Assembly: GCA_963844035.1 (NCBI GenBank)
Contig: CAWJMT010000009.1
Location: forward strand, 64,001 to 128,000
DNA: 64,000 nt
Reading direction: 5' to 3'
DNA from: an uncultured Gemmatimonadales bacterium
GTDB lineage: Bacteria > Gemmatimonadota > Gemmatimonadetes > Gemmatimonadales > GWC2-71-9
A model generated the notes under the pieces. It ran no database searches. It was given only the letters and a program-made list of their open reading frames with translations, and was not told where the DNA came from. Made by a program: the position numbers and the translations under genes. This document shows, piece after piece, positions 8,264-28,828 of the stretch (its first letter is position 1; each line of letters begins with the position of its first letter).

Positions 8264-8303
8264 TTAGCGCCGGCGACGTGCTCGTTTCGGAACGCCGCCG
8301 CTC

Positions 8304-8336: not shown

Positions 8337-8484
8337 CCCTCTCCAAGGATTTCTGGAAGGGCTACCCGCAGCAGCGGGACCGCGTGGCTTCGACGTCACA
8401 CCATGCCACGCCGCTCCAATATTCAGATGGGACTCAAAGCCCCAGCGCAGGTTTAGCGCATCACCTCGGAATCGGGAGGGGTTT

Positions 8485-9000
8485 ATGGCCGCGGATTTCT
8501 TTTTGGGAGAATCGCTGGTGGGCGAGGGCAACGAGGTCGCCCACGTTGATCTGATCATCGGATCCAAGATGGGCCCCGCAGGACAGGCATTCACGCAGGC
8601 GCTGTCGCGCAACAGCGACGGGTTCACCACGTTGCTGGCCGTCGTGGCGCCAAACCTGCCGGCGAAGCCGGACACGCTGCTGTTCAACAAGGTCACGATC
8701 AAGGGTGCGGCCCAGGCGGTACAGATGTTCGGACCGGCACAGGCGGCGGTCGCCCGCGCGGTCGTGGACTCCGTCGCGTCGGGGGTGATCCCGCGCGCCA
8801 AAGCGGACGACTACTGCATTCTGGTGGGCGTGTTCATCCATTGGCAGGCGAAGGACGACAAGAAGATCTTCAAGTACAACTATCAGGCGACCAAGGAATC
8901 GATTGAGCGCGCCCTGAAGGGCCAGCCCACGCTGGACGCCGTGATCAGCGGCGCGAAGACCGCCACCCATCCGTTTGCCGGCGGCGCCGACAAGAGCTGA
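8485..9000 (+). CDS. fae: Formaldehyde-activating enzyme
   Basis: [52 protein letters not shown]. Confidence 0.96.
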
Positions 9001-9012
9001 CGCTCACGGCAG

Positions 9013-9886
9013 ATGCGCAGGATTCTGGTGCAACTCGACAGCTCCCGGCTGCCGAGCGTGTTCGACCGCGTTGTCGCGTACGATGCCGGCGCGGACGAGG
9101 TGCTGAGCTACGGCGCCGTCACGGAAAGCGATGTTCGCGATCTCGTGCACGGATGCATTTTCACCCGTGGCCCCAAGGACCTGAAGCACACCGCGGTGTT
9201 CATCGGGGGGAGGGACTTAGCGGCGGGGGAGCGCCTGCTCGCCGCCGCGCGCAAGGCGTTGTTCCCGCCCTTCACCGTCTCCTTGATGCTCGATTCCAAC
9301 GGCTCGAACACGACCGCGGTTGCCGCGGTAGCGCGACTGCTCGAGGCCGCGGGGGGCGCGCGCGGTCAGCGCGCCGTGGTGATCGCGGGGAGCGGCCCGG
9401 TCGGGGCGCGAGCTGCCGGGCTGCTCGCGAAGGCTGGGGCCGACGTGCTCATCACGTCGCGCCATGCCGATAGCGGGGAGCGGGCACGCGATGCGATCCT
9501 CCGGCGGTTCGGGGGCAGTGTGCGATCGGCCCCGGCCGGCACGCCCGACGAGATCGCACGGGCGCGTCGAGGGCGCCACGCTGCTCCTGAACGCCGGTCC
9601 CGCCGGCGTGCCGGTCGTGGGCAAGAGCGCCTGGGCCGGCCGACCCGGCCTGCGCGTCGCTGCCGACTTGAACGCCGTCCCACCCCTCGGCATCGAGGGG
9701 ATTACCGCCGCCGATGACGGGGTGACGAAGGACGGCGTGATCTGCCTGGGCGCGCTCGCGATCGGCAACGTGAAGATGAAGCTGCACAAGGCCTGTATCG
9801 GACGCCTGTTCGAGCGCAACGACCTGGTGCTGGACGCCGAAACAATTGCCGACGTCGCGCAAGAGTTGCGGACGTCCAAGGCGTAG
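9013..9886 (+). CDS. mtd: NAD(P)-dependent methylene-H4MPT dehydrogenase (Mtd family), frameshift near 9560
   Basis: SVFDRVVAYDAG, FTRGP, DSNGSNTTA, GSGPVG; continues in a second frame with DLNAVPPLGIEG, GALAIGNVK. Confidence 0.88.
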
Positions 9887-9891
9887 CGGCC

Positions 9892-11043
9892 GTGACCGCG
9901 CGTCGGGTCCTGATCGCCGGCGTTTCCACGCGCGCGTTGGCCGAATCGGCCGCGCGGGCGGGATATCGGGTGCTCGCGGTGGACGGGTTCGCAGATCTGG
10001 ATCTGAGCGCCTGCGCGGACACGGTGCTTCGGGTGCGCGACGCCGCGGGGCGGTTCCAACCGCGGCTCGCCGCTCGCACGGCCCGCTCGCTCGCGACGCC
10101 CGCCGTGTGCTACGTCGCGAGCTTCGAGAACGATCCGCGCGCCGTCCGGAGCCTCGCGGCGGATCGCGCGCTGTGGGGCAACGCCCCTGCGGTGCTCACC
10201 CGCGTACGCAATCCGGAGCGCCTCGCCCAAACCCTCGAGCGCCGGGGCTTTGCGGCACCGCAGGTGCGCGCCACCCGGCCCACGCGGGCGAGCGCCACCC
10301 GCTGGCTCATGAAATCACGCGCCTCGGGGGGCGGGCACGGCGTTGTGACTTGGCGGCCTCGGCGCCGGCGCGCGGATCCCCCCGGCGTGTACTTCCAAGA
10401 GCAGATCGCGGGCATTCCGGGATCGATCGTGTTCGCGGCCGACGGGCATCGCGCGGTCGCTCTTGGGTTGTCGCGGCTGCTCGTGGGAAAACGGGCGTTC
10501 GGGGCAGCGGGATTTCGTTACTGCGGGAATATCCTGGCGGACGCGCGCCACCCGCAGTTCGCTCGCGAAGCGGGTTTGCTCGCCTGGGGCGTGGCACTGG
10601 CGGCGAGCCTCACGCAGGCGTTCGGGCTCGTGGGCGTGAACGGGATCGATTTCGTCGCCCGCGCCGGACGCCCGTACCCGCTCGAGGTCAATCCGCGATA
10701 CACCGCGTCGATGGAGCTGGTCGAGCGCGCCTACGGCCTGTCGATGTTCGACATCCACGTCCGCGCATGCGCGGGCGACCTGCCGGCGTTCGAGCTGTTC
10801 AAGGCGCGCGCAGTGGACCACGGCGCGGTGGGCAAGGCCGTGGTGTACGCACGCCACGACATGGTCGCAGGAGACACGCGGGCGTGGCTCGAGGACGACA
10901 CGGTGCGGGACATCCCGGCACCGGGCGAGCGCATTCCGCGGGGGCATCCGATCTGCACCGTGTTCGCGCGGGCGCCGGACGCGGCTGCGTGCCTGCGCGC
11001 GTTGGAGACCCGCGCCGCGGCCGTGTACCGGCGTCTGGCATGA
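9892..11043 (+). CDS. ATP-grasp protein of H4MPT/methanofuran clusters
   Basis: STRALAESAARAG, D-x-FAD-x-D, GGGHG, EVNPRYTAS; cluster context. Confidence 0.8.
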   Translation: MTARRVLIAGVSTRALAESAARAGYRVLAVDGFADLDLSACADTVLRVRDAAGRFQPRLAARTARSLATPAVCYVASFENDPRAVRSLAADRALWGNAPAVLTRVRNPERLAQTLERRGFAAPQVRATRPTRASATRWLMKSRASGGGHGVVTWRPRRRRADPPGVYFQEQIAGIPGSIVFAADGHRAVALGLSRLLVGKRAFGAAGFRYCGNILADARHPQFAREAGLLAWGVALAASLTQAFGLVGVNGIDFVARAGRPYPLEVNPRYTASMELVERAYGLSMFDIHVRACAGDLPAFELFKARAVDHGAVGKAVVYARHDMVAGDTRAWLEDDTVRDIPAPGERIPRGHPICTVFARAPDAAACLRALETRAAAVYRRLA

Positions 11044-12303
11044 CGCCGGCCGCGAAGCTGGTGACGGAACACGCCACGTGTCTCGGCTGCGGTTGCGCCT
11101 GCGACGACATCTCGGTGGTCGTGCAGGGCGATGCGATCGCCGAGGCCGGCAACGCATGCGCGCTCGGCCGCTCCTGGTTTGGCGACGGCACGGTCGCGGC
11201 CGCACGTGCGCTCGCATGGCCGCGCGGTTCCCCTGGACGAAGCGGTCGCGGACGCGGCGACGCTACTCGGAGCGGCGCGCCGTCCGCTGGTTTACCTGGC
11301 GCCGGACATCACGGTCGGAATGCCAACGCGTGGCGGCCGGTATCGCCGACCGGCTGGGCGCGGTGCTCGACAGCCCGACGTCCCAGATCGCGGACGGAGT
11401 TCTCGCGGCGCAGCGGCGCGGGCAGGCGGGTGCGACGCTGGGCGAAATCCGGCAGCGGGCCGACTTCATCGTGTTCTGGGGAATCGATCCGGCGTTACGC
11501 TACCCGCGGTATTCCTCCCGCTACGCTGCCCTCCCGGCGGATGCCCAGACGCCCGAAGGACGCAGGACCCGCACGGTGGTCGCGGTCGACGTCGGTCGCT
11601 GCCCGGGGCGCTGGGGACGCGGATGAGCGCATCGCCATCTCGCCCGAGGAGGAGGTAGACGCGCTGGGCGCCATGCGAGCGGCGGTCCTGGGGCGCAGCA
11701 CGGGCGTGCCAGAGCTCGACCGCGTGGAGCAGCTCGCCCGGCGGATGGCGCAGGCGCGGTATGCGGTGATCGTGCACGACGCCGAACCGGGCGACCTGGC
11801 CGCCGATGCCGGGCGCGTAGAGGCGTTGCTCGCCCTGGCGGCGGAGCTCAACGGGCCGAGTCGATGCGCGGTGTCGTTGCTGCGGGCCGGCGGAAACCGG
11901 TCGGGGGCCGATCTCGTGCTCACGTGGCAGACCGGATTCCCGATGGCGGTGGATTTCGCGCCCGGGTACCCGTGCTATCGGCCTCGAGACGGCGCGGCCG
12001 TGTGGTTGCAGCGCGGCGAGATCGACGCTGGCCTAGTGGTGGGCGCAGCGGCCCATCTCCCGGCGGAGGTCGCACAGGGACTCGCCGCCGTGCCCGACTG
12101 TCCTGATCGGCCCTGCGGCGACGACCGCAGCGCTCAAGAGCGCGGTCGCGATCGATACCGGCGTCGCCGGAATCCACGAGGGCGGCACGGCCTTCCGCAT
12201 GGACGGCGTCCCGCTCCCGCTGCGTCCCGCCCGCGGCGTTACCCCCGCTCCTGCGGCACTCGGGATCGTGCGGGCGCTCAGCGAGCGGCTGGAGGACCGA
12301 TGA
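11040..12303 (+). CDS. fhcB: Formyltransferase/hydrolase complex subunit B (FwdB-like), several frameshifts
   Basis: CLGCGCACDDI, ATLGEIRQRAD, GGNRSGA...WQTGFP, GIHEGGTAFRMDGVPL found across frames. Confidence 0.85.
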
Positions 12304-13958
12304 CCGCGCCCACGCGGCTCCGCATCGCAGGTGGGGCGGTGTACGATCCGGCGAACGGTGTGGACGGCGTGGTGCGCGATGTCTGCATTGAAAACGGGCG
12401 CGTCGTGGCCGAGCTGCCGAAGGATGCACCGCGGCTCGATGCCAGCGGCATGGTCGTGATGCCGGGCGGCGTGGACATCCACGCGCACATCGCCGGGTCG
12501 AGTGTGAGCCATGCCCGTCACCTGCTCCCCGAAGAGCACGCCGCGGATCCGGCACCGCGTCCCGCGCTCTTGGACCACGAGCCCGCCCGCTCAGGGACGG
12601 GGGGCACGGTGCCCAGCACGTTCACGACCGGCTACCGCTACGCCCAGCTCGGCTATACCACGGTGATGGAGGCGGCGATTGCGCCGGTCGCCGCGCGGCA
12701 CGCGCACGCCGAGCTCGACGACACACCGCTTGTGGACGCGGGCTTCTTCGTGCTGCTCGGCAACGACGATTACTTGCTGGAGCAGCTGGCCAAAGGCGAG
12801 CAGCGACGGGCCCGCGACTACGCCGCCTGGCTGCTCGGCGCGGCGGGCGCCTACGCCATCAAGATCGTCAACCCGGGCGGGATCGCGGCCTGGAAATCGG
12901 GGGCGCGCGAACGTCGCGGGAATCGATGACCCGGTGGGATCGAGCGCGGTGACGCCACGCAGGATTCTGGAAACACTGGCCGATGCGGCGAACGCGCTCA
13001 ACCTGCCCGCATCCGGCGCACATTCACTGCAACAATCTCGGCCAAGCCGGGAACGTCGCGACCACCCTCGATACGATGCGCGCGCTCGCGGGACGGCGGG
13101 CGCACTTTACGCACCTGCAGTTTCACAGCTACGGAGGCGAGCGCGGGGGCGCCTGGAAGTCGGGGGCGCGCGAGGTCATCGAGTACGTCAACAGTCACGC
13201 CGAGTTGAGCGTGGACGTCGGTCAGGTGATGTTCGGGCCCGCCACGACGCTCACGCGCCGACGCGCCGGTCGAGTACCACCTGCACGCACGCACCGGCCG
13301 CAAGTGGGTGAACCTGGACGTCGAGCTCGAGAGCGGTTGCGGCATCGTGCCGTACGAGTACAAGGAGAAGGCGGCGATCGCGGCGTTGCAGTGGGCGGTG
13401 GGGCTCGAGCTGTTTCTGCTCGCGCGGAATCCCTGGCAGGTGGTGCTGTCCACCGACCACCCGAATGGCGGCTCGTTTCTGGCCTACCCGGAGCTGGTGC
13501 GGCTGCTCATGAACCGCACCTACCGCGACGCGTGCCTCAAGCGGGTGAATCCGAAACTGCTCGGGGGCAGCGCGCTGCTCGACGGCCTGGCGCGCGAATA
13601 CTCGCTGTCGGAAATCGCCATCGTCACGCGCGCCGGTCCGGCGAGGCTGCTCGGCCTGCGCCACAAGGGGCACCTCGGCGTCGGGGCAGACGCGGACGTG
13701 ACTCTGTACAGCAGGCAGGACGATGCGGCCGCGATGTTCGCGGCGCCCCGCTATGTCGTCAAAGCCGGGACCGTCGTCGTACGCGACGGACAGCTGCAAC
13801 ACGCGCCCGCCGGACGGCGGCTCCACGTGCACCCGGAATACGACGCGGCCGTGACCCGGGACGTGAAGCGGCACTTCGAGCGTCACGCCACCGTCTCGTT
13901 CGAGAATTATCCCATCGGGCCCGCTCGCCGATGCCCCCGTAGGCGGAGCGTGAGATGA
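12300..13958 (+). CDS. fhcA: Formyltransferase/hydrolase complex subunit A (amidohydrolase), frameshifts near 12905, 13005, 13255
   Basis: GGVDIHAHIAG, KIVNPGG, HIHCNNLG, THLQFHSYG, STDHPNGG, KGHLGVGADAD. Confidence 0.9.
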
Positions 13959-14855
13959 AGATCAACGGCGTGACGATCGAAGACGCGTTCGCGGAGGCGT
14001 TCACGATGCGCGCCGCACGCATCGTGATCACGGCGAAAAACGCGAAGTGGGCGCGCGCGGCGGCCCAAAGCCTGACGGGATTCGCCACATCGGTGATCGG
14101 TTGCAAGTGCGAGGCGGGAATCGAAGGTGATGTCGCCGCCACGGACACGCCCGACGGCCGACCCGGTCTCAGCGTGCTGCTACTCACGATGGACAAGGAG
14201 AGCCTGCCGGAGCGCCTGATCGAGCGACTGGGGCAGACCGTGCTCACCTGCCCCACGACGTCCTGTTTCGACGGTCTCCCGGCCGCGCCGAGACCGGCTG
14301 GCGGTCGGGAAGGCGCTGCGGGTGTTCGGCGATGGGTTCCAAGGGAGCAAGGTGGTCGGCGGCCGCCGCTACTGGCGCGTGCCCGTGATGGAGGGTGAGT
14401 TCCTGATCGAGGAGTCGTTCGGGGCGCAGAAAGCGGTGGGGGGCGGGAATTTTCTCATCCTCGCCGAGGATGCGGACGCGGCGCTCGCGGCGGCGGAAGC
14501 GGCGGTCGCCGCCATGGACCCGCTGCCGGGCGTGATCACGCCGTTCCCGGGCGGCGTGGTGCGGAGCGGGAGCAAGGTCGGCTCGCGGCGCTACAGCGAC
14601 ATGATTGCGACCACCAACGACGCGTTCGCCCCGACCCTGCGGGCGGTCACGGATACCGCGCTCCCGGAGGGGGTGAACTGCGTCCTCGAAATCGTGCTCG
14701 ACGGCCTGGACGCGCCATCGATCGAGGCCGCGATGCGCGTTGGGATCCACGCCGCGTGCTGCCCCGGAGTGCGCAGCATCACGGCGGGGAACTACGGCGG
14801 CAAGCTCGGGCCGCACCATTTTCACCTGCGGCAGATCATGGGAACGGCAGGGTGA
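13955..14855 (+). CDS. fhcD: Formylmethanofuran:H4MPT formyltransferase, frameshift near 14290
   Basis: INGVTIEDAFAEAF, TPDGRPG, VLTCPTT, FGDGFQ, PFPGGVVRSGSKVGS, AGNYGGKLG. Confidence 0.92.
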
Positions 14856-15618
14856 GCGACGAGGTCGTGCTGACGCTGCGCGCGCCGCTCGACCGCGCGC
14901 TCGAGGCGTCCTGCATCGCGCCGGACCGGTTCGCCGACGCTCGGCGAGCGGGAGATCGCGGCCCTCCCGATGCGCCAAGGCGGACGCGCGGCCGTGTTAG
15001 GTGATTTCTTTGCGGTGCGGGGCGCGCGCGCGGCCCGGGTCCGTGTGGCCGGGAAGCCTCGAGCAGGCGGACGGGATCGGGACGGGAATGACAGGCGGCG
15101 AGTTGGTGATCGAAGGCAATGTCGGACGGGATGTGGGGCTCGCGATGTCGGGCGGCAGCGTCGAAGTGCACGGCGACGCGGGGGTGAACGCCGGCGGCGC
15201 CCCTCCGGGGGCTGCGCGGGGGGTCACGGGTGGAGAGATCGTCGTACGCGGGTCGGTCGCCGGTGATGCAGGGGCTGGAATGCGCAGAGGGCTGGTCGTT
15301 GTGATGGGGGACGCGGGACGGGGGACGGCGCAAGGCGTGATCGCTGGCACGGTGGTCGTGTTCGGAACCATCGCAGCCGGAGCCGGCCGGTTCATGAAGC
15401 GCGGCTCCATCGTCGCGCTCCACGAGATCGCGCGGCCGGCGACGTTTCGCTACGCGTGCACCTATCGGCCGCCGCATCTGCAGCTGCTGTTTCAATACCT
15501 GCGCCGGCGCTACACGTTGCCGGTCACGGAAGCGCACGTCACCGGCCGGTATCACCGCTATTCGGGCGACCTCGCGGAGCTGGGACGAGGCGAGATTCTG
15601 CAATGGGCGGGGGAATGA
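14852..15618 (+). CDS. fhcC: Formyltransferase/hydrolase complex subunit C, frameshifts near 14940 and 15050
   Basis: GxGMxGG beta-helix repeats, MRRG, MKRGSI, GDLAELGRGEIL. Confidence 0.88.
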
Positions 15619-16584
15619 GCGGCGCAGGCGCCGGGCTCAACGCGCGGGCGTGGGCGATCGCCGACCGGCTCGCGGCCCCGGACGCGTTGCAGCGCGTCGC
15701 GGTGCGGCACGCTGGCGAACGGCGCCCGCGTGATCGATGCCGGGATCGCGGCGCAGGGTGGGCTCGGAGCCGGGCTCGCCCTCGCCGAGATCTGCATGGG
15801 CGGGCTGGGCCGCGTGAACTACCGGCCGGTGACGATCGGCGGCGAGGCGTGGGCCGGGGTGCAGGTGTGGACCGACCATCCCGGCGGTGAGCTGTATGGC
15901 CTCACAGTACGCCGGCTGGGCGATTCAGGTGGACAAGTACTTCGCGATGGGCTCCGGCCCGTTGCGGGCACACGCCCGCGTGGAAAAGGAGCTGTTCGCC
16001 AAACTCGGCTATGCCGAGCAGGCCGAGCGCGGGGTGCTGGTGCTCGAGACCCGGACTCCCCCAGGCGACGCCGAGGCGGCGTGGGTCGCGCGAAAGGCGG
16101 GGCTCGAGCCCTCGCAGCTCACCCTCGTGGCCGCGCCCACGGCGAGCATCGCCGGCACGGTGCAGATCATCGCCCGCATCCTCGAAACGGGGCTCCACAA
16201 GATGGACACGCTCGGATTCGACGTGAACAAGGTCGTCGAGCGGGATCGGCACGGCTCCGCTGCCGCCGGTCGCGAATCACGACCTGCGGGCGATCGGCCG
16301 CACGAATGACTGCATCCTGTACGGCGGGCAGGCGCGCTACACCGTGGACGCGGGCGACGCCGAGCTCGCGGCGCTCGTGCCCAACCTGCCGGCCTCGGCG
16401 TCCAAGGACTACGGCACGCCGTTCGCCGAGATCTTCGAGCGCTACGACGGCGATTTCTATCAGATCGATCCGCTGCTGTTCAGCCCGGCGGAGGTGTGGC
16501 TGACGAGCGTGAAGAGCGGCAAGACGTATCACGCGGGGCAGCGTGAACCCCGAGGTGCTGCGCACCTCGCTGTTCGCGGACTGA
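15615..16584 (+). CDS. mch: Methenyl-H4MPT cyclohydrolase, several frameshifts
   Basis: EICMGGLG, SQYAGW, AMGSGPLRA, APTASIAG, GRTNDCILYGG, DFYQIDPLLFSPA. Confidence 0.92.
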
Positions 16585-16590
16585 CGCGGC

Positions 16591-17472
16591 GTGCGGATCG
16601 CAATTCTGGCCGCGCGGGAGGGCTGGCACACCGCCGAGTTGTGCCGGGCGCTGGTGGCTCGGGCGTGCCAGCCCTCGGTGCTTGCCTACGAAGCGCTCGT
16701 CGGGCGCCTGGGCGCCGGGCCGGGATCCGGGCTGACGAGCGGCGGCGAGGATCTCGACAACGCCGCGGCGGTGCTGCCGCGCATTATTCCCGCGGGCTCG
16801 CTCGAGCAAATCATCTTCCGAATGGACGCGCTGCACCGCCTGGAGGACCGTGCCATTCCGGTGATGAACTCGCCCCGCGCGCTCGAGCGCACCGTGGACA
16901 AGTTCTGGACCACGGCACTGCTCGAGCAGGCGGGGCTTCCCGTCCCGGAGACGATCGTGTGCGAGCGCCCCGAAGACGCGGTGGCGGCGTTTCGCGAGCT
17001 GGGAGACGTGATCGTCAAGCCGCTGTTCGGCTCGATGGGACTCGGCATGGTGCGCGTGAGCGACGAGGAGATGGCGTTCCGCGTATCGCGCACGTTGGAG
17101 GCGATCCGAGGGGTATATTATCTCCAACGCGCGATCGATCATGGCGGTTGCGATGTGCGGGCGTTCGTGGTCGGCGACCGGGTGATCGGCGCGATCGAGC
17201 GGCGGGCCCCCGGCTGGCGCACCAACCTGGCCCGGGGCGGCGAGGCGCACCCCATTACCCTGAGCCCCGAATGGACGGCGCTGGCACTCCGTGCCGCCCG
17301 CGCGGTGGGGGCGGAATACGCCGGGGTGGACCTGCTCCCGGCGCAGGACGGCTCGGTGTACGTCGTCGAGGTGAACGGAATCCCGGGATGGCGCGGCCTG
17401 CAGGACGCGACGTCGGTCGACGTCGCCGGAGCGATCGTCGAGCATCTCCTCGAGCGGGTGGTGCGGCGGTGA
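16591..17472 (+). CDS. RimK-family alpha-L-glutamate ligase (orf5/MptN-like)
   Basis: KPLFGSMG, DVRAFVVG, WRTNLARG, EVNGIPGW. Confidence 0.85.
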   Translation: MRIAILAAREGWHTAELCRALVARACQPSVLAYEALVGRLGAGPGSGLTSGGEDLDNAAAVLPRIIPAGSLEQIIFRMDALHRLEDRAIPVMNSPRALERTVDKFWTTALLEQAGLPVPETIVCERPEDAVAAFRELGDVIVKPLFGSMGLGMVRVSDEEMAFRVSRTLEAIRGVYYLQRAIDHGGCDVRAFVVGDRVIGAIERRAPGWRTNLARGGEAHPITLSPEWTALALRAARAVGAEYAGVDLLPAQDGSVYVVEVNGIPGWRGLQDATSVDVAGAIVEHLLERVVRR

Positions 17473-18349
17473 GCCGACGCGAGCGATGTCGCCGCGCTGG
17501 CCCAGCTCGCGTGCCTGCTCGAGGTCAGCGCGCCGAAGCCCGGCAACGTGTCCCCGGCGGCCCCGTTCCACGACACGCGCTACGAGGACTTCCTCGCCAG
17601 CGCCGTGGCGATCGGCCCGTCGCTCGCCGCCGCGGCCGTCCAGCCCCTGGGTGTGACCATCCGGAACGCCGTCGAAGCCACGCGCCGCTGGACGCGCGAC
17701 CAACACGAACCTCGGCATCGTGCTGCTGTTCGCGCCGCTGGCCCGAGCGGCCCTGACTCGCGACGCGGGCAGCCTGCGCGACGCGGTGCGCGCGACCCTC
17801 GCCGCTACGACGGTGGCGGACGCACGCGAGGCGTATGCCGCGATCCGGCTGGCGTCCCCGGGTGGATTGGGCACCGCGCCGGAGCAGGACGTCGCCCGTT
17901 CCCCCACGGTGTCACTGCTCGAGGCGATGGCGTTGGCGCAGGGGCGCGACGCCATCGCGCGTGAATATGTGTCGGGGTTCGAGACGATCTTCGACGCCGG
18001 CGCACCGGCGCTGGACCGCGCCCGCGCTGCCGGGCTACCGTGGCGCGATGCGATCGTCCACACCTACCTCACATTGCTCGCCGGCGCCGCCGACACGCAC
18101 ATCGCGCGCAGGGCGGGCGCCGCGGCCGCCCGCGACGTGCAGCGGAGGGCGCAGGCGGTGCTCGACGCGGGAGGGATGCACCAGCCGGCCGGCCGGGAGG
18201 CGGTCGCCGAGCTGGACCGCGCCCTGCGCGACCCATGTAACACCAGAAACCCGGGCGCCACCGCCGACCTCACGGCCGCGGCGATATTCGTTACGCTGCT
18301 CGAGGGCGGCTGGTCCGAACGGACGGAGGAGCACCATGCCGGGGCGTAG
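17469..18349 (+). CDS. CitG-like triphosphoribosyl-dephospho-CoA synthase family (orf7), frameshift near 17700
   Basis: LEVSAPKPGNV, TNLGIVLL, DTHIAR, NPGATADL. Confidence 0.82.
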
Positions 18350-18846
18350 CCAATTCAAGGTGTCGCTCACGAAGGACCACATCGTGTTCGCCTCCGCGCA
18401 TTTCATCACGTTTCGCGGCCACCGCTGCGAGACACTGCACGGCCACAACTACCGGACGCGTGTGTCGGTGGAAGGCGGGCTCGATCCCGAGACCGCCTTC
18501 GTCATCGACTTCGCCGAGTTGAAGCAGCTGATGAAGCGGCTCGTGGACGAAATCGACCATCGCGTGCTGTTGCCGCTCGAGAACGCCAAGCTGCAAATCA
18601 CGGAAGAGGGCGACTCGGTGATCGGTCGCCTACGAGGGCGTGCGGCGGTACGTGTTCCCGAAGCGGGACTGCGCGCTGTTGCCGATTCCGAACACAACCG
18701 TCGAGATGCTGGCGCAATATCTCGCGGTGCGCGCGCGGCGCGAGCTGGAGCAGGCCGGCGGCGACGCGGTCGAGCTGACGTCGATCGAGGTCGAGGTGGA
18801 GGAAAACTTCGGCCAGTCGGCCACCTACCGCGAATCACTCACGTGA
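18336..18846 (+). CDS. 6-pyruvoyl/6-carboxy-tetrahydropterin synthase family (COG0720), frameshift near 18625
   Basis: FASAHF, CETLHGHNY, DF, DH, NTTVEMLA, VEE. Confidence 0.85.
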
Positions 18847-19882
18847 CCGGCGTGCTCGGCTGGGACATCGGCGGCGTGAACACCAAAGTCGCGCGCGTCG
18901 CGCACGGCGAGGTCGTCGACGTGCAGGCCCGGCCGTTCGAGATTCAACGGCACCCGCATGCCTTGCGACCGCTGCTCGTAGAGCTGGGCCGTGCGGTGGG
19001 GATGCAGCCGGGCGACGTGCACGCGGTCACCATGACCGCCGAGTTGTCCCAGACCTTCCGCACCAAGCGGGAGGGCGTCGGGTTCGTCCTCGATCACGTC
19101 CTCGCCGCCTTCCCGGACGAGGCACATCGGGGTCCACACGGTGGACGGTCGCTTCATCGACGCCGCCGCCGCACGCGAGGCGCCGCTCGCGGTGGCCGCC
19201 GCGAACTGGGCGGCCACGGCGCGTCTCGTGGCGCAGGAGTGGCCCGACGGTGTGCTGATCGATGTCGGATCCACGACGACGGACATCACGCCAATCGTCG
19301 CCGGTGCCATCGCCGCCCGGGGCCGCACCGACCCCGAACGGCTGCGCGAGGGTGAGCTGGTGTACACCGGGGCGCTGCGCACGCCCGTCGAGGCGATTGC
19401 GCCGACCGTTCCGCTCTGGGGTGGGGCAGCCGGAGTCGCCGCGGATGGCTTCGCGCTGGCGGGGGACGTACACCTGTGGCGCGGGCAACTGGTCCCCGAC
19501 GACTATTCCGTCCCCACGCCCGATGGACGCCCCGCCACGCGCGAGTTCGCCGGCGGGCGTCTGGCGCGGGTCGTGTGTGCCGACCGCGAAATGCTTGACG
19601 AGAGTACCATCGATGCGATCGCCGACGGCTTGTGGGAAGCGCAGGTGGAGCGGATCGCGCGCGCGCTGGCGCGCATCGGTGGACCGCCACGCGACGCTGG
19701 CGCGCGGCATCGCCATCGTCACGGGACTCGGCGATTTCCTGGCGGCCGAAGCAGCCCGCCGGGCAGGCCTTCAGGTGACCAACCTGTCCGCACACTGGGG
19801 TCGTGGGGCGCGGCACGCTCCCGCAGCGGCCGTCGCGTTGCTGCTCGACGCCAAACTTGAGCTGGAGACCATAGCGCGATGA
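18843..19882 (+). CDS. Hydantoinase/oxoprolinase-like H4MPT-linked protein (orf9, MfnF-like), frameshifts near 19125 and 19685
   Basis: GWDIGGVNTK, TMTAEL, AAANW, DVGSTTTDI, ELVYTG-x-LRTP. Confidence 0.83.
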
Positions 19883-20475
19883 CGGCAGGGCGGAGCGGGG
19901 TTGAGACGATTGTGAAGGTGGGCGGCGGCCTGCTGAGCCGGGCCGGTGCGTTCGAGCTCGTCACCGGGGCGTTGGCGTCGTTCGGGAAAGGGCGTCGCCT
20001 GCTGGTGATCCCGGGCGGGGGACCGTTTGCCGAGGCGGTGCGCGAGCTCGTACGGCGCGTGAAAGTCGGCGACGAGGCGGCGCATTGGATGGCAGTGTTG
20101 GGCATGGACCAGTACGCCCACGCCCTGACAGAACGGACCGCCGGCGCGGTTTTGGTCGAGCAGCTGCCCGAGGTCCACGCGGCTCTCGACGCCGGCCTAA
20201 TCCCGGTGCTCGCCCCGTACCGCTGGCTGCGTGCCGCCGATCCCCTTCCCCACTCCTGGAATGCCACGAGCGACAGCGTCGCCGCCTGGGTGGCCGGTGC
20301 GGTGAACGCCAAACGCATCGTGTTGATCAAGCCGGCCAAGGGCGAGACATCCAGGCTGGTCGACCCCCTGTTTCTCAAGACGCTGCCGCCGGGGGTCGAT
20401 TGTGTGGTGCTCACGGCGCATGAGATGGAGAAACTCGGCGAGGTTCTAGACAGGCGCGCCGCAAGCAAGGTCTGA
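19879..20475 (+). CDS. Amino-acid-kinase family protein (orf21, MfnE-like)
   Basis: VKVGGGL, PGGGPFAE, AHWMA, LPHSWNATSDS. Confidence 0.82.
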   Translation: MTAGRSGVETIVKVGGGLLSRAGAFELVTGALASFGKGRRLLVIPGGGPFAEAVRELVRRVKVGDEAAHWMAVLGMDQYAHALTERTAGAVLVEQLPEVHAALDAGLIPVLAPYRWLRAADPLPHSWNATSDSVAAWVAGAVNAKRIVLIKPAKGETSRLVDPLFLKTLPPGVDCVVLTAHEMEKLGEVLDRRAASKV

Positions 20476-21141
20476 GAGCGCGGCCGCACGGGCCACCGAG
20501 CACCCGTCCGGTGCGCCCACCGTCGCACGCGGCACCACGCACCCCAACAATGTCGGCACCGGCCTCCCGGGCCGCAGGCAGGTCCGCCCCGCGGAGGCTT
20601 CCCGCCAGAGCGACGAGCAGTCCGGCTGCGTGCGCCGTCGCTGCCCACGTTGCGACGTGGTCCTGTGGGATGAGCTCGAACAGGGTCGCGTCCTTGATGG
20701 CGGTGTCGAGCAGTACTCCGGTGGCGCCCACGGCAGCGGCGACTTCCAGGATCACGTCGGGCCGCGGTGCATGCCGACGCGGTCCCAGTCGGCATAGCCC
20801 ACCAGGATCACGTGCCCGTCCGTCCCTGCCCCGCAGGCGTCGGCAAGCTCACGGACCCGAGCGGCCGACCCGGTGCCGCGGAATCCGATTTTCACATAGG
20901 TGACGCCAGCGGCCACCGCCGCCCGGGTAGCGCGCCCGATGTGCGCGCTGTCGGTCGCATCACCCAATGCGGCGCTGACGGGCCGGTGAGCACCCACGGC
21001 CCTGCAGATCGCGCGCAGGCGCTCAGGCGCGACGGCACCGAGGGCGCCACGACGCGGCTCTTTCGCGTCGATCAGGTCGGCACCGCCCGCGAGCGCCGCA
21101 CGCGCATCACGTACATCCGCAACGCTCACCAGGAGTTGCAT
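20411..21141 (-). CDS. mfnB: (5-formylfuran-3-yl)methyl phosphate synthase (orf22/DUF556), frameshift near 20765; 3' end uncertain
   Basis: MQLLVSV, GGADLIDAKEP..GALGA, VSAALGD, YVKIG, LLDTAIKD, ALAGSL, GVRGAAC. Confidence 0.85.
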
Positions 21142-21202
21142 AGCTTGGGCGTCCCTTGTGGCTGCCGCGAAATCGCCGGTAGGTTAGGGTTTGGGAAACC
21201 CG

Positions 21203-22030
21203 ATGCCAAAACCTAGCGCCGAAGGGCCGGTCGTGCGATCCACGCCGGCTGAATCTCCCCCGGTCGGGGAACTATCACTCGCCGGGAAAGTGGTGCTCGT
21301 CACCGGCGGCTCGACGGGGATTGGCCGCGCTACTGCCGTCGCGTGTGCGGCGGCCGGAGCGGACCTGGCGATCACGTATGCGTCGAACCAGGCGGGTGCC
21401 GCGAGCAGCGCCGAGGAGATCCGCGCCCTCGGACGGCGTGCCGAGGTATTCCATGTGGATCTGGCGAATGCCGCCGGGGTCACAGAGCTGGCGGCGAGTG
21501 CGCGCGCCGCGCTCGGGCGCGTGGACGTATGGATCAACAACGCCGGCGCGGACATTCTGACGGGCTCCGCGCGCAACCTCACCTGGACCGAGAAGCTCGA
21601 CCGGCTGCTGAGCGTAGATCTCCGGGGCACCGTGCTGGCGTCGTGGGCGGCGGTGGAGCTGATGCGCGCGCAGCAGGCGGGGGGCGTGATCCTCAACATG
21701 GCCTGGGACCACGTGGCGGCGGGCGGGATGACGGGTGAGTACGCCCAGGTGTTCTGCGCCGCGAAGGGCGGCGTCCACAGCTTCAGCCGTGTCCTGGCGC
21801 GCTCGGTGGCGCCGCACATCCGGGTGAACGTGCTCGCCCCCGGCTGGGTCGAGACCGACTACGGGGCTGCGCTCGATCCCGCGGTCAAGCAGCGGATCGC
21901 CGGAGGCATCCCCCTGCAGCGCTGGGCCCGTCCGGAGGAGGTCGCCGCCGCCGCGGTATTTCTCGCGTGCGACGCAGCTGGCTACATCACCGGACAGATG
22001 CTGATGATCAACGGCGGCGACGTGATCTAG
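21203..22030 (+). CDS. Atypical SDR-family oxidoreductase
   Basis: TGGSTGIG, NNAG, VNVLAPGW, ITGQ; FCAAK where YxxxK is expected. Confidence 0.85.
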   Translation: MPKPSAEGPVVRSTPAESPPVGELSLAGKVVLVTGGSTGIGRATAVACAAAGADLAITYASNQAGAASSAEEIRALGRRAEVFHVDLANAAGVTELAASARAALGRVDVWINNAGADILTGSARNLTWTEKLDRLLSVDLRGTVLASWAAVELMRAQQAGGVILNMAWDHVAAGGMTGEYAQVFCAAKGGVHSFSRVLARSVAPHIRVNVLAPGWVETDYGAALDPAVKQRIAGGIPLQRWARPEEVAAAAVFLACDAAGYITGQMLMINGGDVI

Positions 22031-22051
22031 CCGCCTCACCAGGAGGTCCCG

Positions 22052-22411
22052 ATGGCGACGAAGGAACGCACCTACACCGAAGCGGAGATCGAGGGGAAGC
22101 TCAAGGACTTGCCCGGGTGGTGGGTCGAGAACGGCTGGATCCGCCGCATGTACAAGACCGACGGGTGGCCGATCACGCTGATGCTGGTGAACGCGATCGG
22201 CTATGTCGCCGAGGCGGCCAATCACCATCCCGATCTCACCGTGACGTGGGCGAAGCTGACGGTCAAGCTGCAGAATCACGCCGCGGGCGGGATCACCGAC
22301 AAGGATTTCGAGCTGGCCCGCAAGATCGAGGACGTGGTGCTGTGGCGGCCGCAGGGCGGCGCGCTCGAGGGGACACCCAACAAGTTCGTGCGCTCCGGCG
22401 ACCCGCGGTGA
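22052..22411 (+). CDS. Pterin-4a-carbinolamine dehydratase
   Basis: AEAANHHPDL, H..GGITDKDFELA. Confidence 0.88.
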   Translation: MATKERTYTEAEIEGKLKDLPGWWVENGWIRRMYKTDGWPITLMLVNAIGYVAEAANHHPDLTVTWAKLTVKLQNHAAGGITDKDFELARKIEDVVLWRPQGGALEGTPNKFVRSGDPR

Positions 22412-23818
22412 GCAGCGCGTCTCGCGCTCCGCGGCGGGTGCTGTTCGTCACCGGCAAACTCGCAGAGCCCGCGCTGCGCCGCACCCTCGAACAGCTCGCC
22501 CCGGAGTTCGTCTACGACGTCGCCGTTCTCAAGATCACGGTCGCCGCGCTCATGACGGCGTCCTGGATCGCGCGGTTTCTCGAAGTCCCGCCCGGCACCG
22601 ACCTGGTGCTGATTCCCGGCCTGTGCGAAGGCGACCCCGCGCTGATCACCGAGCAGGTAGGCGTTCCGGTGCGAGAAGGGGCCCAAGGATCTGCGCGAGA
22701 TTCCCGAGTACTTCGGCCGGGAGAAGGTCGCCGGTACGTACGGCGCCTGGAACATCGAGATCGTCGCCGAAATCAACAACGCGCCGCGGCTGCCGCGCGA
22801 AGCGGTGCGCCGCGAAGCCGAAGCGTTCCGCGAGAGCGGGGCCGACCTCGTCGACATCGGATGCACGCCTGGGCGCGCGTATCCCGACTTGGGCGGGGTC
22901 GTCCAGGAGCTGGTGGGTGCCGGGATGCGCGTCAGCATCGACTCGTTCGATCCGGGAGAAATCCGGACGGCGGTCGCGGCGGGCGCAGAGCTGGTGCTGA
23001 GCGTGAACCGGTCGAACCTCGAGGTCGCGCGGGAGCTTGCCGGCACGAGCGCGCGCGTGGTGGTGGTGCCGGATTTCGGCGCGGGGCTCGAGACGCTCGA
23101 GCCCAGTATTGCCGCCCTCGACGCCTGGGGGGTGCGCTACCTGATCGACCCGGTCATCGAGCCGATCGGGTTCGGCTTCGTCGCGTCGCTCGAGCGCTTC
23201 ATCGAGGTGCGCCGGCGCTACCCGAGTGCCCCGTTGTTCATGGGCGTGGGAAACATCACGGAGCTCACCGAGGCCGACTCGACGGGTATCAACGCCATTC
23301 TCATGGCGATCTGCCAGGAGCTGGGCGTCGGTGCGGTGCTCACCACGGCGGTGATTCCCTGGGCCCGAGGAGCGGTGCGCGAGCTCGCCGTGGCGCGACA
23401 GCTGATGTACCACGCCGTCACGCAGAAGACCTTGCCCAAGGGCATCGACGACCGCCTGCTCACGGTGCGAGACGCGAAGGTGCTCGCGTACCAGGAAGAC
23501 GAGTTGCGCGCGATTCAGGCGACCGTGACCGATCCCAACTTCCGCATTTTCACCGACGCCGACACGATCACCGTCTTCAACGACGAGATCTTCGTGCGCG
23601 GCACGGATCTCGATGAGCTGTTTGCGCAGCTGCCCGTCACGGACCCCGCGCATGCCTTCTACCTCGGGCGCGAGCTCATGAAGGCGAAACTGGCGATCAC
23701 GCTCGGCAAGACGTACCGCCAGGAGGGCGCATTGCGGTGGGGCTATCTCACGCCGCCCGACGACCGCGCTCCCAAGCACGTGAAGCGCCGGCGGGCCCGG
23801 GCCAAGGGCGGCGTGTGA
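22408..23818 (+). CDS. Dihydropteroate-synthase-like protein of H4MPT clusters (orf20), frameshift near 22675
   Basis: FVTGKLAE, VAALMT, GPKDLREIP, DIGCTPG, SIDSF, GNITELTEAD, HAFYLGREL. Confidence 0.83.
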
Positions 23819-25295
23819 GTGGGTTCCCCCTGGTCGAGGAGCTGATCCCGGCTCCCGATCCGCTGGAAGCGTGCGCGCAGCTGGCCGACCTTCCGTATCT
23901 CGTCTTGCTCGACAGCGCGACCACCGAGACACCCGTCGGGCAGCACTCATTTCTCACCGCCGATCCCCCAGCGCTGGTTCGCAGCAAGGGCGATCTGACG
24001 CAACAGCGCACCCCGGCGAGCGAGGTGTGGACGCGCGTGGACGGCGATCCGCTCAGCGCCGCGCGGCAGCTGCTCGCGCCCTTCGCTGCGGCGCCCGTAC
24101 CCGGGCTGCCCCCCTTTCAGGGAGGGGCAGCCGGTTACCTGGGCTACGATTGGGGCGCGATGCTCGAGCGTGTGCCCCGCGCCGCATACGACGACCTCGC
24201 CATCCCGGACGTCTTGCTCGGCATTTACGACTGGGTGATCGCCTGGGACCATCGGACGAACCGCGCCTGGCTCGTGTCGACGGGGATGCCCTGAGACGGG
24301 ACCGGCTCGGAGCGAGCGCGCGGCTGAGCCGCATGGCGTTCGTGAAGGAACGGCTGGCGGGCAGGCGGGCAGGCGGGCAGGCGGGCGGCGAAGGCAAAGC
24401 CCGCCCACCCGCCGACCCGCCCACCCGCCCCTCCGCCCCGACGTATCCCGTCCCCGACATCGCGGACGCCTCCCGTCTCGGGCTCCGCTCGACGTTCACC
24501 CGCGCCGGCTACCAACACGCCGTGGCGCAGGTGATCGAGTACATCTGCGCCGGGGACATCTTTCAGGCCAACCTGTCGCAGCGGCTCGAAGCCCCGCTTG
24601 TGGGCACGCCGTTCGAGCTGTACCGCCGGCTCCGGTCCCGCAATCCCGCGCCGTTCGCGGCGTTTCTCGATTTCGGCGAGCTGGTGGTGGCGAGCTCATC
24701 CCCCGAACGCTTCCTGCGCCTCGATGGCCGGCACGTGGAAGCCCGCCCCATCAAGGGAACGCGGCCCCGCGGGGTGGGACCGGAGCACGACGCGGCTCTG
24801 GCCATGGCGCTCGCCGAGAGCGACAAGGATCGCGCGGAGAACGTGATGATCGTCGATCTCCTGCGGAACGACCTGTCGCGCGTGTGCGAGCCGGGATCGG
24901 TGCGGGTGCCCGAGCTGTTCGCGCTCGAGCACTACGCGACCGTGCACCACCTGGTCTCGACCGTCGTGGGCGACCTCATCCCGACGCACAATGCGGCAGA
25001 CCTGGTGCGCGCCGCATTCCCCGGCGGGTCGATCACGGGCGCGCCCAAAGTCCGCGCGATGCAGATCATCGCCGAGCTCGAGCCGACGCGGCGCGGGGTG
25101 TATTGCGGCGCGATCGGCTACTGGAGCACGACTGGGGCATTCGACACGAGCATCGTCATCCGCACGTATCTCGTGCTCGGGGACGTCGTGTATTTCCAGG
25201 CGGGGGGCGGGATCGTCGCCGACTCCGATCCCGAGCAGGAGTACCGGGAAACGCTCGACAAGGCCGGAGGCCTCATCGCCGCCCTGGTGCCATGA
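23815..25295 (+). CDS. pabB: Aminodeoxychorismate synthase component I, frameshift near 24290
   Basis: LLDSA, PFQGG, GDIFQANL, PIKGT, AENVMIVDLLRND, GSITGAPK, GGGIVADS. Confidence 0.9.
24356..24439. repeat. Inverted pair of 8-bp tandem arrays inside pabB
   Basis: (GGCGGGCA)x3+GGCGGGCG at 24356-24387; CCCGCCNN-type x5 at 24400-24439. Confidence 0.8.
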
Positions 25296-25906
25296 TCCTG
25301 CTCATCGACAACTACGACTCCTTCGTCTACAACCTGGCGCGCTACACGCGCGAGCTGGGGCTCGAGCCGCACGTCGTGCGGCATGACGCGATTTCGGTAG
25401 CAGGCGTCGCGGCGCTCGCCCCGTCGCACATCGTGATCTCGCCCGGCCCGTGCTCGCCCACCGAAGCGGGGATCTCGACCGACGTGGTGCGCCGGCTGGG
25501 CGCCACGATCCCGATCTTGGGCGTATGCCTGGGCCACCAGTGCATCGGAGCGGCGTACGGCGCGCCGATCGTCCGCGCGGGACGACCGATGCACGGAAAG
25601 GCATCGTGTATCCACCACGATGGGCGCGGCATTTTCACCGGGCTCCCGAACCCGTTCCAGGCCGCCCGTTACCACTCGCTCGCCATCTCCCGCGCGGGGA
25701 TGCCTCCCGAGCTGCGCATCACGGCCACGAGCGACGACGGTGAGATCATGGCGGTCGAGCACACGCACCATCCCGTGGTGGGACTGCAGTTCCATCCCGA
25801 GTCGGTGCTGACAGAGCACGGCTACCGCCTGCTCGATCGATTCTTCCGGGGCGCGGCGTCACGGGGAGATCAGCTGCCCGACCGCGCCGACGGCATGGCC
25901 CGATGA
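25292..25906 (+). CDS. pabA: Aminodeoxychorismate synthase glutamine amidotransferase
   Basis: IDNYDSF, SPGPC, GVCLGHQ, RYHSL, QFHPES. Confidence 0.9.
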   Translation: MILLIDNYDSFVYNLARYTRELGLEPHVVRHDAISVAGVAALAPSHIVISPGPCSPTEAGISTDVVRRLGATIPILGVCLGHQCIGAAYGAPIVRAGRPMHGKASCIHHDGRGIFTGLPNPFQAARYHSLAISRAGMPPELRITATSDDGEIMAVEHTHHPVVGLQFHPESVLTEHGYRLLDRFFRGAASRGDQLPDRADGMAR

Positions 25907-26466
25907 TCCTCGAAACGATCCTCACCACTCAGGATTCCGCGGGCACGGTGCACTGCGCGCCGATGGGTGTGGAGTGGGGCGAGGAGGAAATCGTGATCAA
26001 GCCGTTTCTCGAGACGACGACACTGCGGAACCTCCGCGCTACGGGCGTCGCGGTCGTGAGTCTCACCGACGATGTGATGCTGTTCGCCCAGGCGGCGATC
26101 TCGGACGCGCGGTTTCCGACTTTCCCCGCGGCCGTGGTACCGGGCGTCGTACTCGAAGCCGCGTGCTCGTGGCGCGAGGTGCGGGTGCACGCCATCGACA
26201 CGACGCCGCCGCGCGCCCGCGTCGTCACCACCGTCGTCCATCGCGGTGTGCGCCGGGAGTTCATCGGCTTCAACCGGGCCCGGCACGCCGTGCTCGAGGC
26301 CGCGATCCTCGCGACGCGTACGCACCTGCTTCCCGTCGAACAGATCCGCGACGAGTTCGCACGGCTGCAGGTGATCGTCGACAAGACCGCGGGCCCAAGC
26401 GAGCGGGAGGCGATGGCGCTGCTCACCCAGCACGTGCGCACGGCCGTCCCGGTGGCGGCACGATGA
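25903..26466 (+). CDS. DUF447-family flavin-split-barrel protein of H4MPT clusters
   Basis: ILETILTT, APMG, PF..TTT..NL, GFNRA..AVLEAAILATR. Confidence 0.8.
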   Translation: MILETILTTQDSAGTVHCAPMGVEWGEEEIVIKPFLETTTLRNLRATGVAVVSLTDDVMLFAQAAISDARFPTFPAAVVPGVVLEAACSWREVRVHAIDTTPPRARVVTTVVHRGVRREFIGFNRARHAVLEAAILATRTHLLPVEQIRDEFARLQVIVDKTAGPSEREAMALLTQHVRTAVPVAAR

Positions 26467-27446
26467 CGCGGACGGCGCCGGCGGTGTTTGTCGAGGCGCC
26501 GGCGCGGCTGCATTTCGGTATGCTCGACCTGCGCGGCACCCTCGGGCGCCGGTTCGGGGGCATCGGCGCCGCTGTGCCCGCGCCGTCGCTCCTGCTCGAG
26601 GCGCGCCCCGCCGCGGGCTTGAGCGCGGAGGGACCCCGGGACCACGTCGAGCGCGCGCTCGAGTTCGCGCGTCGCTTCCTGTCCCATCACCATCTCGTTG
26701 CGGGAACCGAGTTGTGTCTGCACCGCACGATCCCGGCGCATGCGGGCCTCGGCTCAGGAACCCAGCTGGCTCTGGCGGTCGCGCGGGCGCTCGCCGAGCA
26801 GCACGGGCTTCCCACGGACATCGCCGCCCTCGCGCACGCCGTGGGCCGGGGCCGCCGCTCGGGCGTCGGCACTTGGACCTTCGCGGGCGGCGGATTCGTG
26901 CTCGGAGGGCGGCCGGCGGCGCACGGACACCGGGATCGCTCCCTTGCTCGCGCGGCTGCCGATACCGGCGGCGTGGCGCTGCGTCATCGTCGTGCCTGAG
27001 GGCGCGCCCGGGCTGGCCGGAGACGAGGAAGCGGCGGCGTTCGCGCGGCTCCCCCCCCGGACCCGCACGCGGTCGAGCACGTGGCGCACGTCGTGGTGAT
27101 GCAGCTGCTCCCGGCGCTCGCCGAGGCGGACCTGGCTGAATTCGGTGCGGCGTTGAGCGAGGTGCAACGGGTTACGGGCGGCTGGTTTGCCGAAGCTCAA
27201 GGGGGGGTGTTCGCGCCGGGCCAGAGCGCGGCGCTGGTGGAGCGCCTGCGCGAATGGGGAGCCACCGGCGTCGGGCAGAGCTCGTGGGGACCGGCGGTCT
27301 ATGGGTTGGTCGCGGACGCGTTCACCGCCGGCATGATCGCTGACCGGGCGCGCGACGTGGTGGGAGCTCGGGGTGCCGTGTACGAGGGCCCGTTCAGCTC
27401 GGGCGGCGCACGGATCGCGCGGGGCGCGCCACCCGAGCCGCTGTAG
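26463..27446 (+). CDS. mptG: Beta-ribofuranosylaminobenzene 5'-phosphate synthase, frameshifts near 26900 and 27060
   Basis: PARLHFG, HAGLGSGTQL, GRGRRSGVG, GQSSWGP (GHMP fold). Confidence 0.88.
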
Positions 27447-27449
27447 GCG

Positions 27450-28800: not shown

Positions 28801-28828
28801 CGCTCCCCCGACCCCCCTTCCCTCGTGA

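Follow-up and report, generated by a model that had tools for sequence, protein, structure and literature searches.

We analyse here a stretch of DNA of 64,000 nucleotides (the window), which is positions 64001-128000 of contig C9 in the source bin G000 of an uncultured Gemmatimonadales bacterium (G labels denote genomes and L labels loci), and in which 21 contiguous genes related to tetrahydromethanopterin (H4MPT) and methylofuran (MYFR) lie at positions 8485-27446, 20 of them on the plus strand and mfnB on the minus strand. We propose, with a probability of about 0.68, that this cluster, located in an inherited slot of a species with no xoxF at the usual site, serves as a cytoplasmic formaldehyde-detoxifying route that is predicted to end in formate, the organism being a non-methylotroph. 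The 21 genes, their order and their coordinates, as listed in an earlier note made from the sequence, are reproduced by Pfam, NCBIfam and tblastn (Table 1).

In the proposed route, Fae would, as judged from its family membership, join formaldehyde to H4MPT, Mtd would oxidize methylene-H4MPT with a yield of NAD(P)H, Mch would form formyl-H4MPT, FhcD would transfer the formyl group to the Fhc-bound methylofuran and FhcA would hydrolyse the product to formate. The pterin would be constructed by PabAB, MptG, Orf20, DUF447, the CitG-like protein, PTPS and a pterin-4a-carbinolamine dehydratase-like protein (PCD), with an atypical short-chain reductase (SDR) probably carrying out the last reduction, and the methylofuran would be constructed by MfnB/E/F, the ATP-grasp ligase and the RimK-like ligase. 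The formaldehyde would be of environmental origin or a product of incidental metabolism, and the formate would be excreted. The core set of the bacterial H4MPT/MYFR formaldehyde-oxidation cluster (fae, mtd, mch and fhcBADC) is all present, as is the H4MPT synthesis set (mptG, orf20, DUF447 and the RimK-like and CitG-like genes).

Probable loss of the methanol-oxidizing genes

The evidence begins with the site after mptG. Among the relatives showing this site, which were drawn from mch- or SDR-positive lists, 16 of 17 have a pyrroloquinoline quinone (PQQ) dehydrogenase gene, xoxF, after mptG, and the 17th, G146, is rearranged, with xoxF at the other end of the cluster. The gene order mutS-cysK-ddl-rhomboid-DUF2268-small ORF-fae...mptG-mnmE-yidC-dnaA is common to G000 and to G002 and G004 of the same genus; in G002 and G004 the xoxF module is inserted between mptG and mnmE, and in G000 the stops of the two genes are 3 bp apart. 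A contig from X1 (X1 and X3 are sequencing runs of one study), which belongs to a strain about 96% identical to G000, covers 25906-27695 of the window, i.e. the right junction mptG-mnmE, and carries no insert. It is noted that the end state of G000 is not unique, several metagenome loci also lacking xoxF in the 2-4 kb after mptG. The proteins at the xoxF site of G004 and G028 have a D-x-D motif, which we take to be the lanthanide motif; the G002 copy was not matched by the pattern.

The bin G000 (3.47 Mb, 39 contigs) is 83.7% complete and 3.0% contaminated, and absences away from the assembled syntenic sites are subject to this completeness. The earlier note reported no methanol dehydrogenase in the window; there is indeed none there, nor in the whole bin, where no match was found to TIGR03075 or to the XoxF of three relatives. 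At the pqq locus, as read from synteny in one contig, G000 has only pqqD (C37:183101-183385) between the same flanks that in G002 and G004 enclose pqqB, pqqC and pqqE (open reading frames (ORFs) read by eye), and pqqC is present in 10 of the 10 mch-positive relatives of the sample. The XoxF methylotrophy module, i.e. xoxF beside the cluster plus PQQ synthesis, is thus not seen in G000.

As for the fate of formate, no molybdenum-type formate dehydrogenase exceeds the cut-off in any of the seven genus genomes, an NAD-dependent one was found only in G004 among five genomes and not in G000, formyltetrahydrofolate synthetase (FTHFS) was found in G002 and G004 and not in G000, and purT was not found over the cut-off. 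The failure to find xoxF, pqqBCE, formate dehydrogenase and FTHFS makes growth of the cell on methanol improbable, and it is from these gene losses that a detoxifying role with formate excretion follows as the likely one.

Frameshifts and selection

In the assembly 13 of the 21 island genes are split by frameshifts, a point on which the earlier note is silent, with fae, the orfY-like gene, rimK, mfnE, SDR, PCD, pabA and DUF447 whole. Of the breaks scored in the island and in mnmE, yidC and dnaA, which are frameshifted too, 21 of 23 are net +1, and elsewhere in the genome the same holds for 64 of 68 breaks (178 genes). Moreover, the X1/X3 strain contigs lack the extra base or bases at 8 sites coinciding with breaks (from 12 of 45 indel rows). 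Given that the +1 bias extends to dnaA and yidC and that the surplus bases are missing from the strain contigs, the breaks are probably insertions in the assembly arising from long-read errors; they presumably also depress the completeness score of G000.

The nonsynonymous divergence (dN) from G033 over about 4120 core-gene codons is 0.200 for G000, 0.215 for G002 and 0.252 for G004. Among the codons at which G000 differs from the strains, 25 of 38 are synonymous, as compared with 28% expected; the 38 codons cover 39 of 40 listed sites, out of a total of 1138. The few in-frame stops of G000 are in fhcA and pabB, both of which have misaligned frameshifted stretches. As read from these codon comparisons, the island is evidently under purifying selection.

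Points against the proposed function and the alternatives

Several observations speak against a working detoxification route. The bin is incomplete, with strain duplication and a foreign stretch. The break density in the island, 1.09/kb, is that of the highest block, the background mean being 0.35/kb (blocks 0-0.96). No dedicated formaldehyde source was found in G000: there is no Rieske oxygenase and no GcvT-domain demethylase, the GcvT matches being read as gcvT and two YgfZ-like genes; gmaS is below the cut-off; the MauA search gave 0 of 5, with no positive control matching; and the one P450 has no assigned substrate. In addition, orf17 (PF00977), a HisA-like accessory gene that is not family-defining, is absent from G000 and present, after the PTPS gene, in 18 of the 18 relatives showing the site; an X1 contig spanning this site likewise has no orf17, and elsewhere in G000 the only match is a HisA-like gene of 31% identity. 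According to the excerpted text of Hemmann 2021 (PMC8141765), orf17 is essential for methylofuran in Methylorubrum extorquens.

Two Rieske proteins of G000 were considered as demethylases and rejected: one (C9:24233-25309) is a chlorite-dismutase/HemQ-like protein that is fused to a Rieske ferredoxin and adjoins a hemE-like gene, and the other is a subunit of cytochrome bc. A motif scan overlooked both of these real Rieske proteins, and its blanks are weak. DAO matches lie at four loci, of which two were scanned, giving a glycerol-3-phosphate-dehydrogenase-like protein and an unassigned oxidase, and two were judged by eye. On the C1 source, which the earlier note had called unknown, none is identified in G000, which reflects the loss of xoxF and the pqq genes in this species; the relatives are predicted to use methanol via XoxF. 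Likewise, of the genes that the note had named for further search, neither xoxF nor formate dehydrogenase nor a GcvT or Rieske demethylase was found in this 84% complete bin.

The alternative that survives best, unlikely as we consider it, is that the cluster is a relic at an early stage, with the methylofuran half dead after the loss of xoxF, pqq and orf17 and the whole heading to the pterin-only state of sister species. Between the same flanks, G006 keeps at the island site only PTPS-mfnE-SDR-PCD-pabAB, and G003 only PTPS-SDR-PCD together with a PQQ dehydrogenase of 57% identity; G000 itself lacks DUF1464, xoxF/J/G, pqqBCE, formate dehydrogenase and FTHFS besides orf17, and its island has the highest break density measured. 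The pairwise distances leave the order of branching unsettled, so that these arrangements are to be read as states and not as a dated sequence. Against decay, dN is not raised, the strain differences are mostly synonymous, no surplus bases occur in the strain contigs at the 8 breaks concerned, and the stops are few and confined to the two genes with misaligned stretches.

A second alternative, to which we give little credit, is that the organism still oxidizes methanol and that its xoxF and pqq genes are on contigs missing from the bin. This would accord with a completeness of 83.7%, with the presence of some TIGR03075 match in 34 of 36 same-family genomes, several of which have paralogs on other contigs, and with the possibility, raised in a passage of PMC10875860, that PQQ is scavenged. 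Yet at the two native loci the flanks are intact in the assembly and the genes are missing, and the bin is larger than the six genomes of the same genus (2.6-3.2 Mb), its completeness probably being depressed by the frameshifts.

Direction of the pathway

That the pathway oxidizes formaldehyde to formate, as the earlier note had it, stands as a prediction: FhcB lacks the residues corresponding to Cys118 and His119 of FwdB and no fwdD is seen in the cluster, which is the pattern of the formate-releasing type, and in the excerpts of Hemmann 2019 (PMC6926001) the loss of Cys118 in FhcB is tied to formate release. The features of an archaeal Fwd/Fmd dehydrogenase, i.e. a cysteine or selenocysteine ligand in subunit B, subunit D and ferredoxins, were not found. 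The N-terminal four-Cys motif is kept in 52 of the 60 FhcB loci with a match, unlike in M. extorquens FhcB. A reductive operation of the pathway, fixing CO2 via a formylmethanofuran dehydrogenase, could draw on this Fe-S motif and on the closer similarity of FhcB to archaeal FwdB than to FhcB 6S6Y, but it is highly improbable, given that the metal-ligand Cys and His are missing, that all 21 genes are assigned with no fwdD/F/G among them and that PF00384 matches only NuoG and an alternative-complex-III-like subunit.

Separately, one Gemmatimonadales locus of the 60, L027, has an fhcB-like gene with the FwdB catalytic motif including Cys-His, and its product may, from this motif, be a true formylmethanofuran dehydrogenase subunit.

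Origin and distribution

The Gemmatimonadota origin suggested by the earlier note agrees with the titles of the best 79 Fae loci on genome contigs (77-91% identity), most of which are Gemmatimonadota and 20 Acidobacteriota, and with a FastTree of fae, mtd, ATP-grasp, fhcA and fhcD, in which the window groups with the Gemmatimonadales loci L016, L017 and L022 at a support of 0.97. This tree was rooted at the midpoint, with 56 rows kept and 27 of 83 left out for low coverage; it holds no proteobacterial, planctomycete or archaeal references and is mute on the donor or the direction of transfer. The Fae-matched loci and the genome set partly overlap and do not count as separate samples.

Neither end of the island is a chimeric join, as seen from the flank synteny with same-genus genomes and from the X1 contig across the right junction; the joins at 8.3 or 27.4 kb that the earlier note had named as refuting were looked for and are excluded by this synteny at both ends. 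The idea of a chimeric island, or of a planctomycete or proteobacterial contig, could appeal to the low-GC foreign stretch on C22 and the near-duplicate contigs in the bin, and to the fact that Fae is 78-86% identical to Acidobacteriota copies too, but it is in practice refuted by the two syntenic junctions, to which the flat GC content (0.67-0.73 in the island, similar to the flanks), the X1 contig and the tree position among Gemmatimonadales add.

Regarding the bin itself, contigs C13 and C32 are near-duplicates of 90-95% identity, which is a strain or species mixture, and C22 has at about 5700-15900 a low-GC stretch (about 0.48) in a high-GC contig, with a CitG-like gene and archaeal-looking ORFs, which is probably contamination or a chimera.

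mch occurs in 16 of 36 same-family genomes and is missing from all 24 of the other same-order genomes examined; in a sample of 201 genomes from across the phylum, 44 have it. In the parts cited here, Butterfield 2016 (PMC5103831) describes soil Gemmatimonadetes with the entire THMPT (i.e. H4MPT) pathway, with the biosynthesis genes immediately upstream of xoxF and with each pathway represented in the proteome, and Diamond 2019 (PMC6784897) and PMC10875860, also in excerpt, describe XoxF as common in the phylum. The presence of the cluster in Gemmatimonadota is thus already known from that description, and the pathway cannot be called unreported in this lineage. In soil Gemmatimonadales the cluster is commonplace, and its publication dates from 2016; what is new here is a member with a reduced context. 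As far as those parts go, the cluster of Butterfield 2016 is from the same phylum and likewise has fae, mtd, fhc, mch and THMPT biosynthesis in one cluster, but that cluster is immediately followed by xoxF, with PQQ synthesis and the tetrahydrofolate-serine route also present, whereas xoxF, pqqBCE and FTHFS were not found here.

With the cluster of M. extorquens, as described in the excerpts of PMC6926001 and PMC8141765, the island shares FhcBADC without a dehydrogenase site, Mch, Fae, Mtd, the RimK-like MyfB, the ATP-grasp protein, the MfnB/E/F-like proteins and MptG. It differs in that FhcB keeps the Fe-S cysteines, DmrA and orf17 are absent, pabAB, PTPS and SDR are inside the cluster and no methanol or formate dehydrogenase was found. 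Chistoserdova 2016 (PMC5020050), again in the parts cited, offers two further parallels, Nitrosococcus oceani/watsonii with loss of methanol dehydrogenase and partial gene loss among close relatives, and Planctomycetes with an H4MPT cluster without methanol dehydrogenase and with Afp not recognised; by contrast, the present case is a nested loss series in one genus and at one site, with the pterin genes the last to go.

Some related clusters deserve mention. Acidobacteriota metagenome-assembled genomes (L014, L019, L040, L042, L051, L059 and others) carry closely related clusters that form one clade in the five-gene tree, and this placement suggests an exchange of the cluster between Gemmatimonadota and Acidobacteriota. 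A DUF1464 gene lies between mtd and ATP-grasp in most relatives (L095:6229-7386 in G004) and is absent in G000, but likewise in several relatives. Contig C1 of G023 (L200, L295) has a divergent fhcBADC adjoining xoxF and PCD; this genome has folA and no match to mch or SDR.

The atypical short-chain reductase

The SDR has an invariant Trp-Asp at the position of the catalytic Ser, and Phe or Tyr in place of the catalytic Tyr, with Phe in the window copy. Among the 201 phylum genomes, mch and SDR occur 44 times each and 42 times together; of the four discordant genomes, G102 has its SDR at a contig end, the contigs of G214 and G143 stop before the missing gene, and G003 truly is SDR-only, like G006. 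Of 80 metagenome loci with SDR, 48 are at least 3 kb long; 46 of these 48 have the Trp-Asp, and in 43 of the 46 the neighbours are H4MPT/methanofuran genes, with several different arrangements. In two Vicinamibacteria loci SDR stands beside PCD and orf20, and for a divergent SDR beside orf20-pabAB the named homologs are, among the matches listed, only from Planctomycetes.

Neither known type of dihydromethanopterin reductase, DmrA or DmrB/AfpA, was found with it. The AfpA/DmrB model TIGR02699 matches 0 of 201 phylum genomes, with the controls matching, and the dihydrofolate reductase (DHFR) family PF00186 matches nothing in G000 and none of the SDR-positive genomes at E 1e-20. TIGR02700 was tried as a probe for the known reductase and replaced by TIGR02699, as it matched ferredoxin domains only (0 of 61 over the cut-off). 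Because SDR occurs with H4MPT genes where DmrA and DmrB are absent, and since it tracks the pathway across three phyla, it is a candidate third dihydromethanopterin reductase. It would serve the same step as DmrA, which is DHFR-like, and the flavoproteins DmrB/AfpA/DmrX (PMC6193120, in excerpt), but with a Rossmann fold unrelated to either. No such proposal was found among the titles and abstract openings listed, and the available text of PMC6193120 mentions neither FolM nor short-chain.

There are points against this candidate. SDR (44 genomes) and folA (32) never overlap, but 125 of the 201 genomes have neither, and related genomes are not independent, so that the exclusion is not strong support. 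A few low-GC SDR homologs have no C1 neighbours. PTR1, FolM and PruA are of the same superfamily with a proposed pterin reduction; we take TGxxxRxG and an Asp-Tyr-Lys triad to be the PTR1/FolM hallmark, and SDR, unlike these, has no Arg in TGxxxRxG, often has Phe for the catalytic Tyr, and reaches with its G004 ortholog 143 bits against NF006598, the cut-off being 288. Its nearest structures in structure and PDB searches are generic FabG-like proteins, which neither support nor exclude pterin reduction.

Gene content of the island

Pfam was run on 56 ORFs of the window, and for NCBIfam the intact orthologs of G004 and G002 served as queries. The Pfam families of the island are Fae, Mpt_N, ATP-grasp_3, Amidohydro_3, FTR/FTR_C, MCH, RimK, CitG, PTPS and Hydantoinase_A, and further AA_kinase, 4HFCP_synth, adh_short, Pterin_4a, DUF6513/Pterin_bind, Anth_synt_I_N/Chorismate_bind, GATase, DUF447 and GHMP. 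The FhcB and FhcC fragments have no Pfam match and were identified by tblastn of the intact orthologs, for which TIGR03122 (fhcC) is above and TIGR03129 below the cut-off. The G002 mtd ortholog matches MtdA structures at E 5e-86. We take the ATP-grasp ligase to be orfY/myfA from its position after mtd, and the CitG-like and DUF447 genes to be orf7 and orf19, respectively. FhcA has metal-binding motifs, whose roles are presumably those familiar for them.

Table 1. Genes of the H4MPT/methylofuran island and the adjoining site, in window coordinates
Feature	Position	Strand	Evidence
fae, formaldehyde-activating enzyme, whole	8485..9000	+	PF08714 E 5e-68; TIGR03126 over cut-off
mtd, methylene-H4MPT dehydrogenase, MtdA/C-like by similarity; one +1 break near 9565	9013..9886	+	PF09176
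ATP-grasp ligase, probably orfY/myfA, whole	9892..11043	+	PF02655 E 5e-19
fhcB, four +1 breaks; N-terminal four-Cys Fe-S motif kept, no FwdB Cys118/His119	11040..12303	+	tblastn, alignment
fhcA, formyl-MYFR hydrolase, at least three +1 breaks, 3' end approximate	12300..13958	+	PF07969; TIGR03121 over cut-off on ortholog
fhcD, formyltransferase, one +1 break	13955..14855	+	PF01913 and PF02741
fhcC, two breaks	14852..15618	+	tblastn; TIGR03122 on ortholog
mch, methenyl-H4MPT cyclohydrolase, three to four +1 breaks	15615..16584	+	PF02289 in three pieces
orf5/myfB-like RimK-family glutamate ligase, whole	16591..17472	+	PF08443; best NCBIfam model MptN, below cut-off
CitG-like, one +1 break near 17694	17469..18349	+	PF01874 in two pieces
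PTPS-family pterin enzyme, one +1 break near 18621; orf17 absent after it	18336..18846	+	PF01242
mfnF-like (orf9), two +1 breaks	18843..19882	+	PF01968; TIGR03123 over cut-off on ortholog
mfnE-like kinase, whole	19879..20475	+	PF00696; NF040622 below cut-off on ortholog
mfnB-like 4-HFC-P synthase, break near 20771, 3' end approximate	20470..21141	-	PF04476
Atypical SDR, candidate dihydromethanopterin reductase, whole	21191..22030	+	adh_short; Trp-Asp motif
PCD, pterin-4a-carbinolamine dehydratase-like, whole	22052..22411	+	PF01329; NF002017 over cut-off
orf20, DUF6513 and dihydropteroate-synthase-like domain, one +1 break near 22675	22408..23818	+	Pfam, NCBIfam
pabB, aminodeoxychorismate synthase I, broken near 24310	23815..25295	+	Pfam, NCBIfam
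pabA, glutamine amidotransferase, whole	25292..25906	+	PF00117
DUF447, whole	25903..26466	+	PF04289/PF20766
mptG, beta-RFA-P synthase, two breaks	26463..27446	+	GHMP domains; TIGR00144 over cut-off on ortholog
3-bp gap between mptG and mnmE stops, site of xoxF(-xoxJG-beta-propeller) in relatives	27447..27449	.	

Neighbouring features

Directly upstream of fae is a conserved ORF of 66 aa (8063-8263) with no Pfam match, which is probably no part of the C1 module, as it is kept in G003 and G006. On the other side lie mnmE-yidC-rnpA-dnaA (27450-32723), and the island therefore adjoins the likely replication origin. At 34094-38969 is a glycine/sarcosine/betaine reductase-type cluster (component B alpha and beta, component C beta, thioredoxin and GrdA), with in-frame TGA codons in grdB (36472) and grdA (38628) that are probably read as selenocysteine, a tRNA-SeC being present on C3; full-length GrdB is found in five of the seven genus genomes and in 0 of 54 others. 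An Rfam scan of the window gave only RNase P, namely a class A RNase P RNA at 43268-43639, and a promoter/terminator scan performed no better than chance level.

Conclusion

The two lines of argument can be joined in a reading that we offer tentatively. In it, the Trp-Asp SDR would be a third, flavin-free dihydromethanopterin reductase of Gemmatimonadota, Acidobacteriota and Planctomycetota that also reduces folate-type pterins, so that it would survive with PTPS, PCD and PabAB after the deletion of the C1 genes, and G000 would be an intermediate, with methanol oxidation gone, the formaldehyde module under selection and methylofuran made with no orf17.

Finally, we note what the case means for the family. 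H4MPT genes alone are not proof of methylotrophy, as they are kept under selection here, by the codon evidence, with no detectable methanol dehydrogenase, PQQ pathway or formate dehydrogenase. Moreover, for the last step of H4MPT synthesis Afp was unrecognised in Planctomycetes, according to the cited part of Chistoserdova 2016 (PMC5020050), and no enzyme of a known type was found in Gemmatimonadota; the SDR would fill this step.

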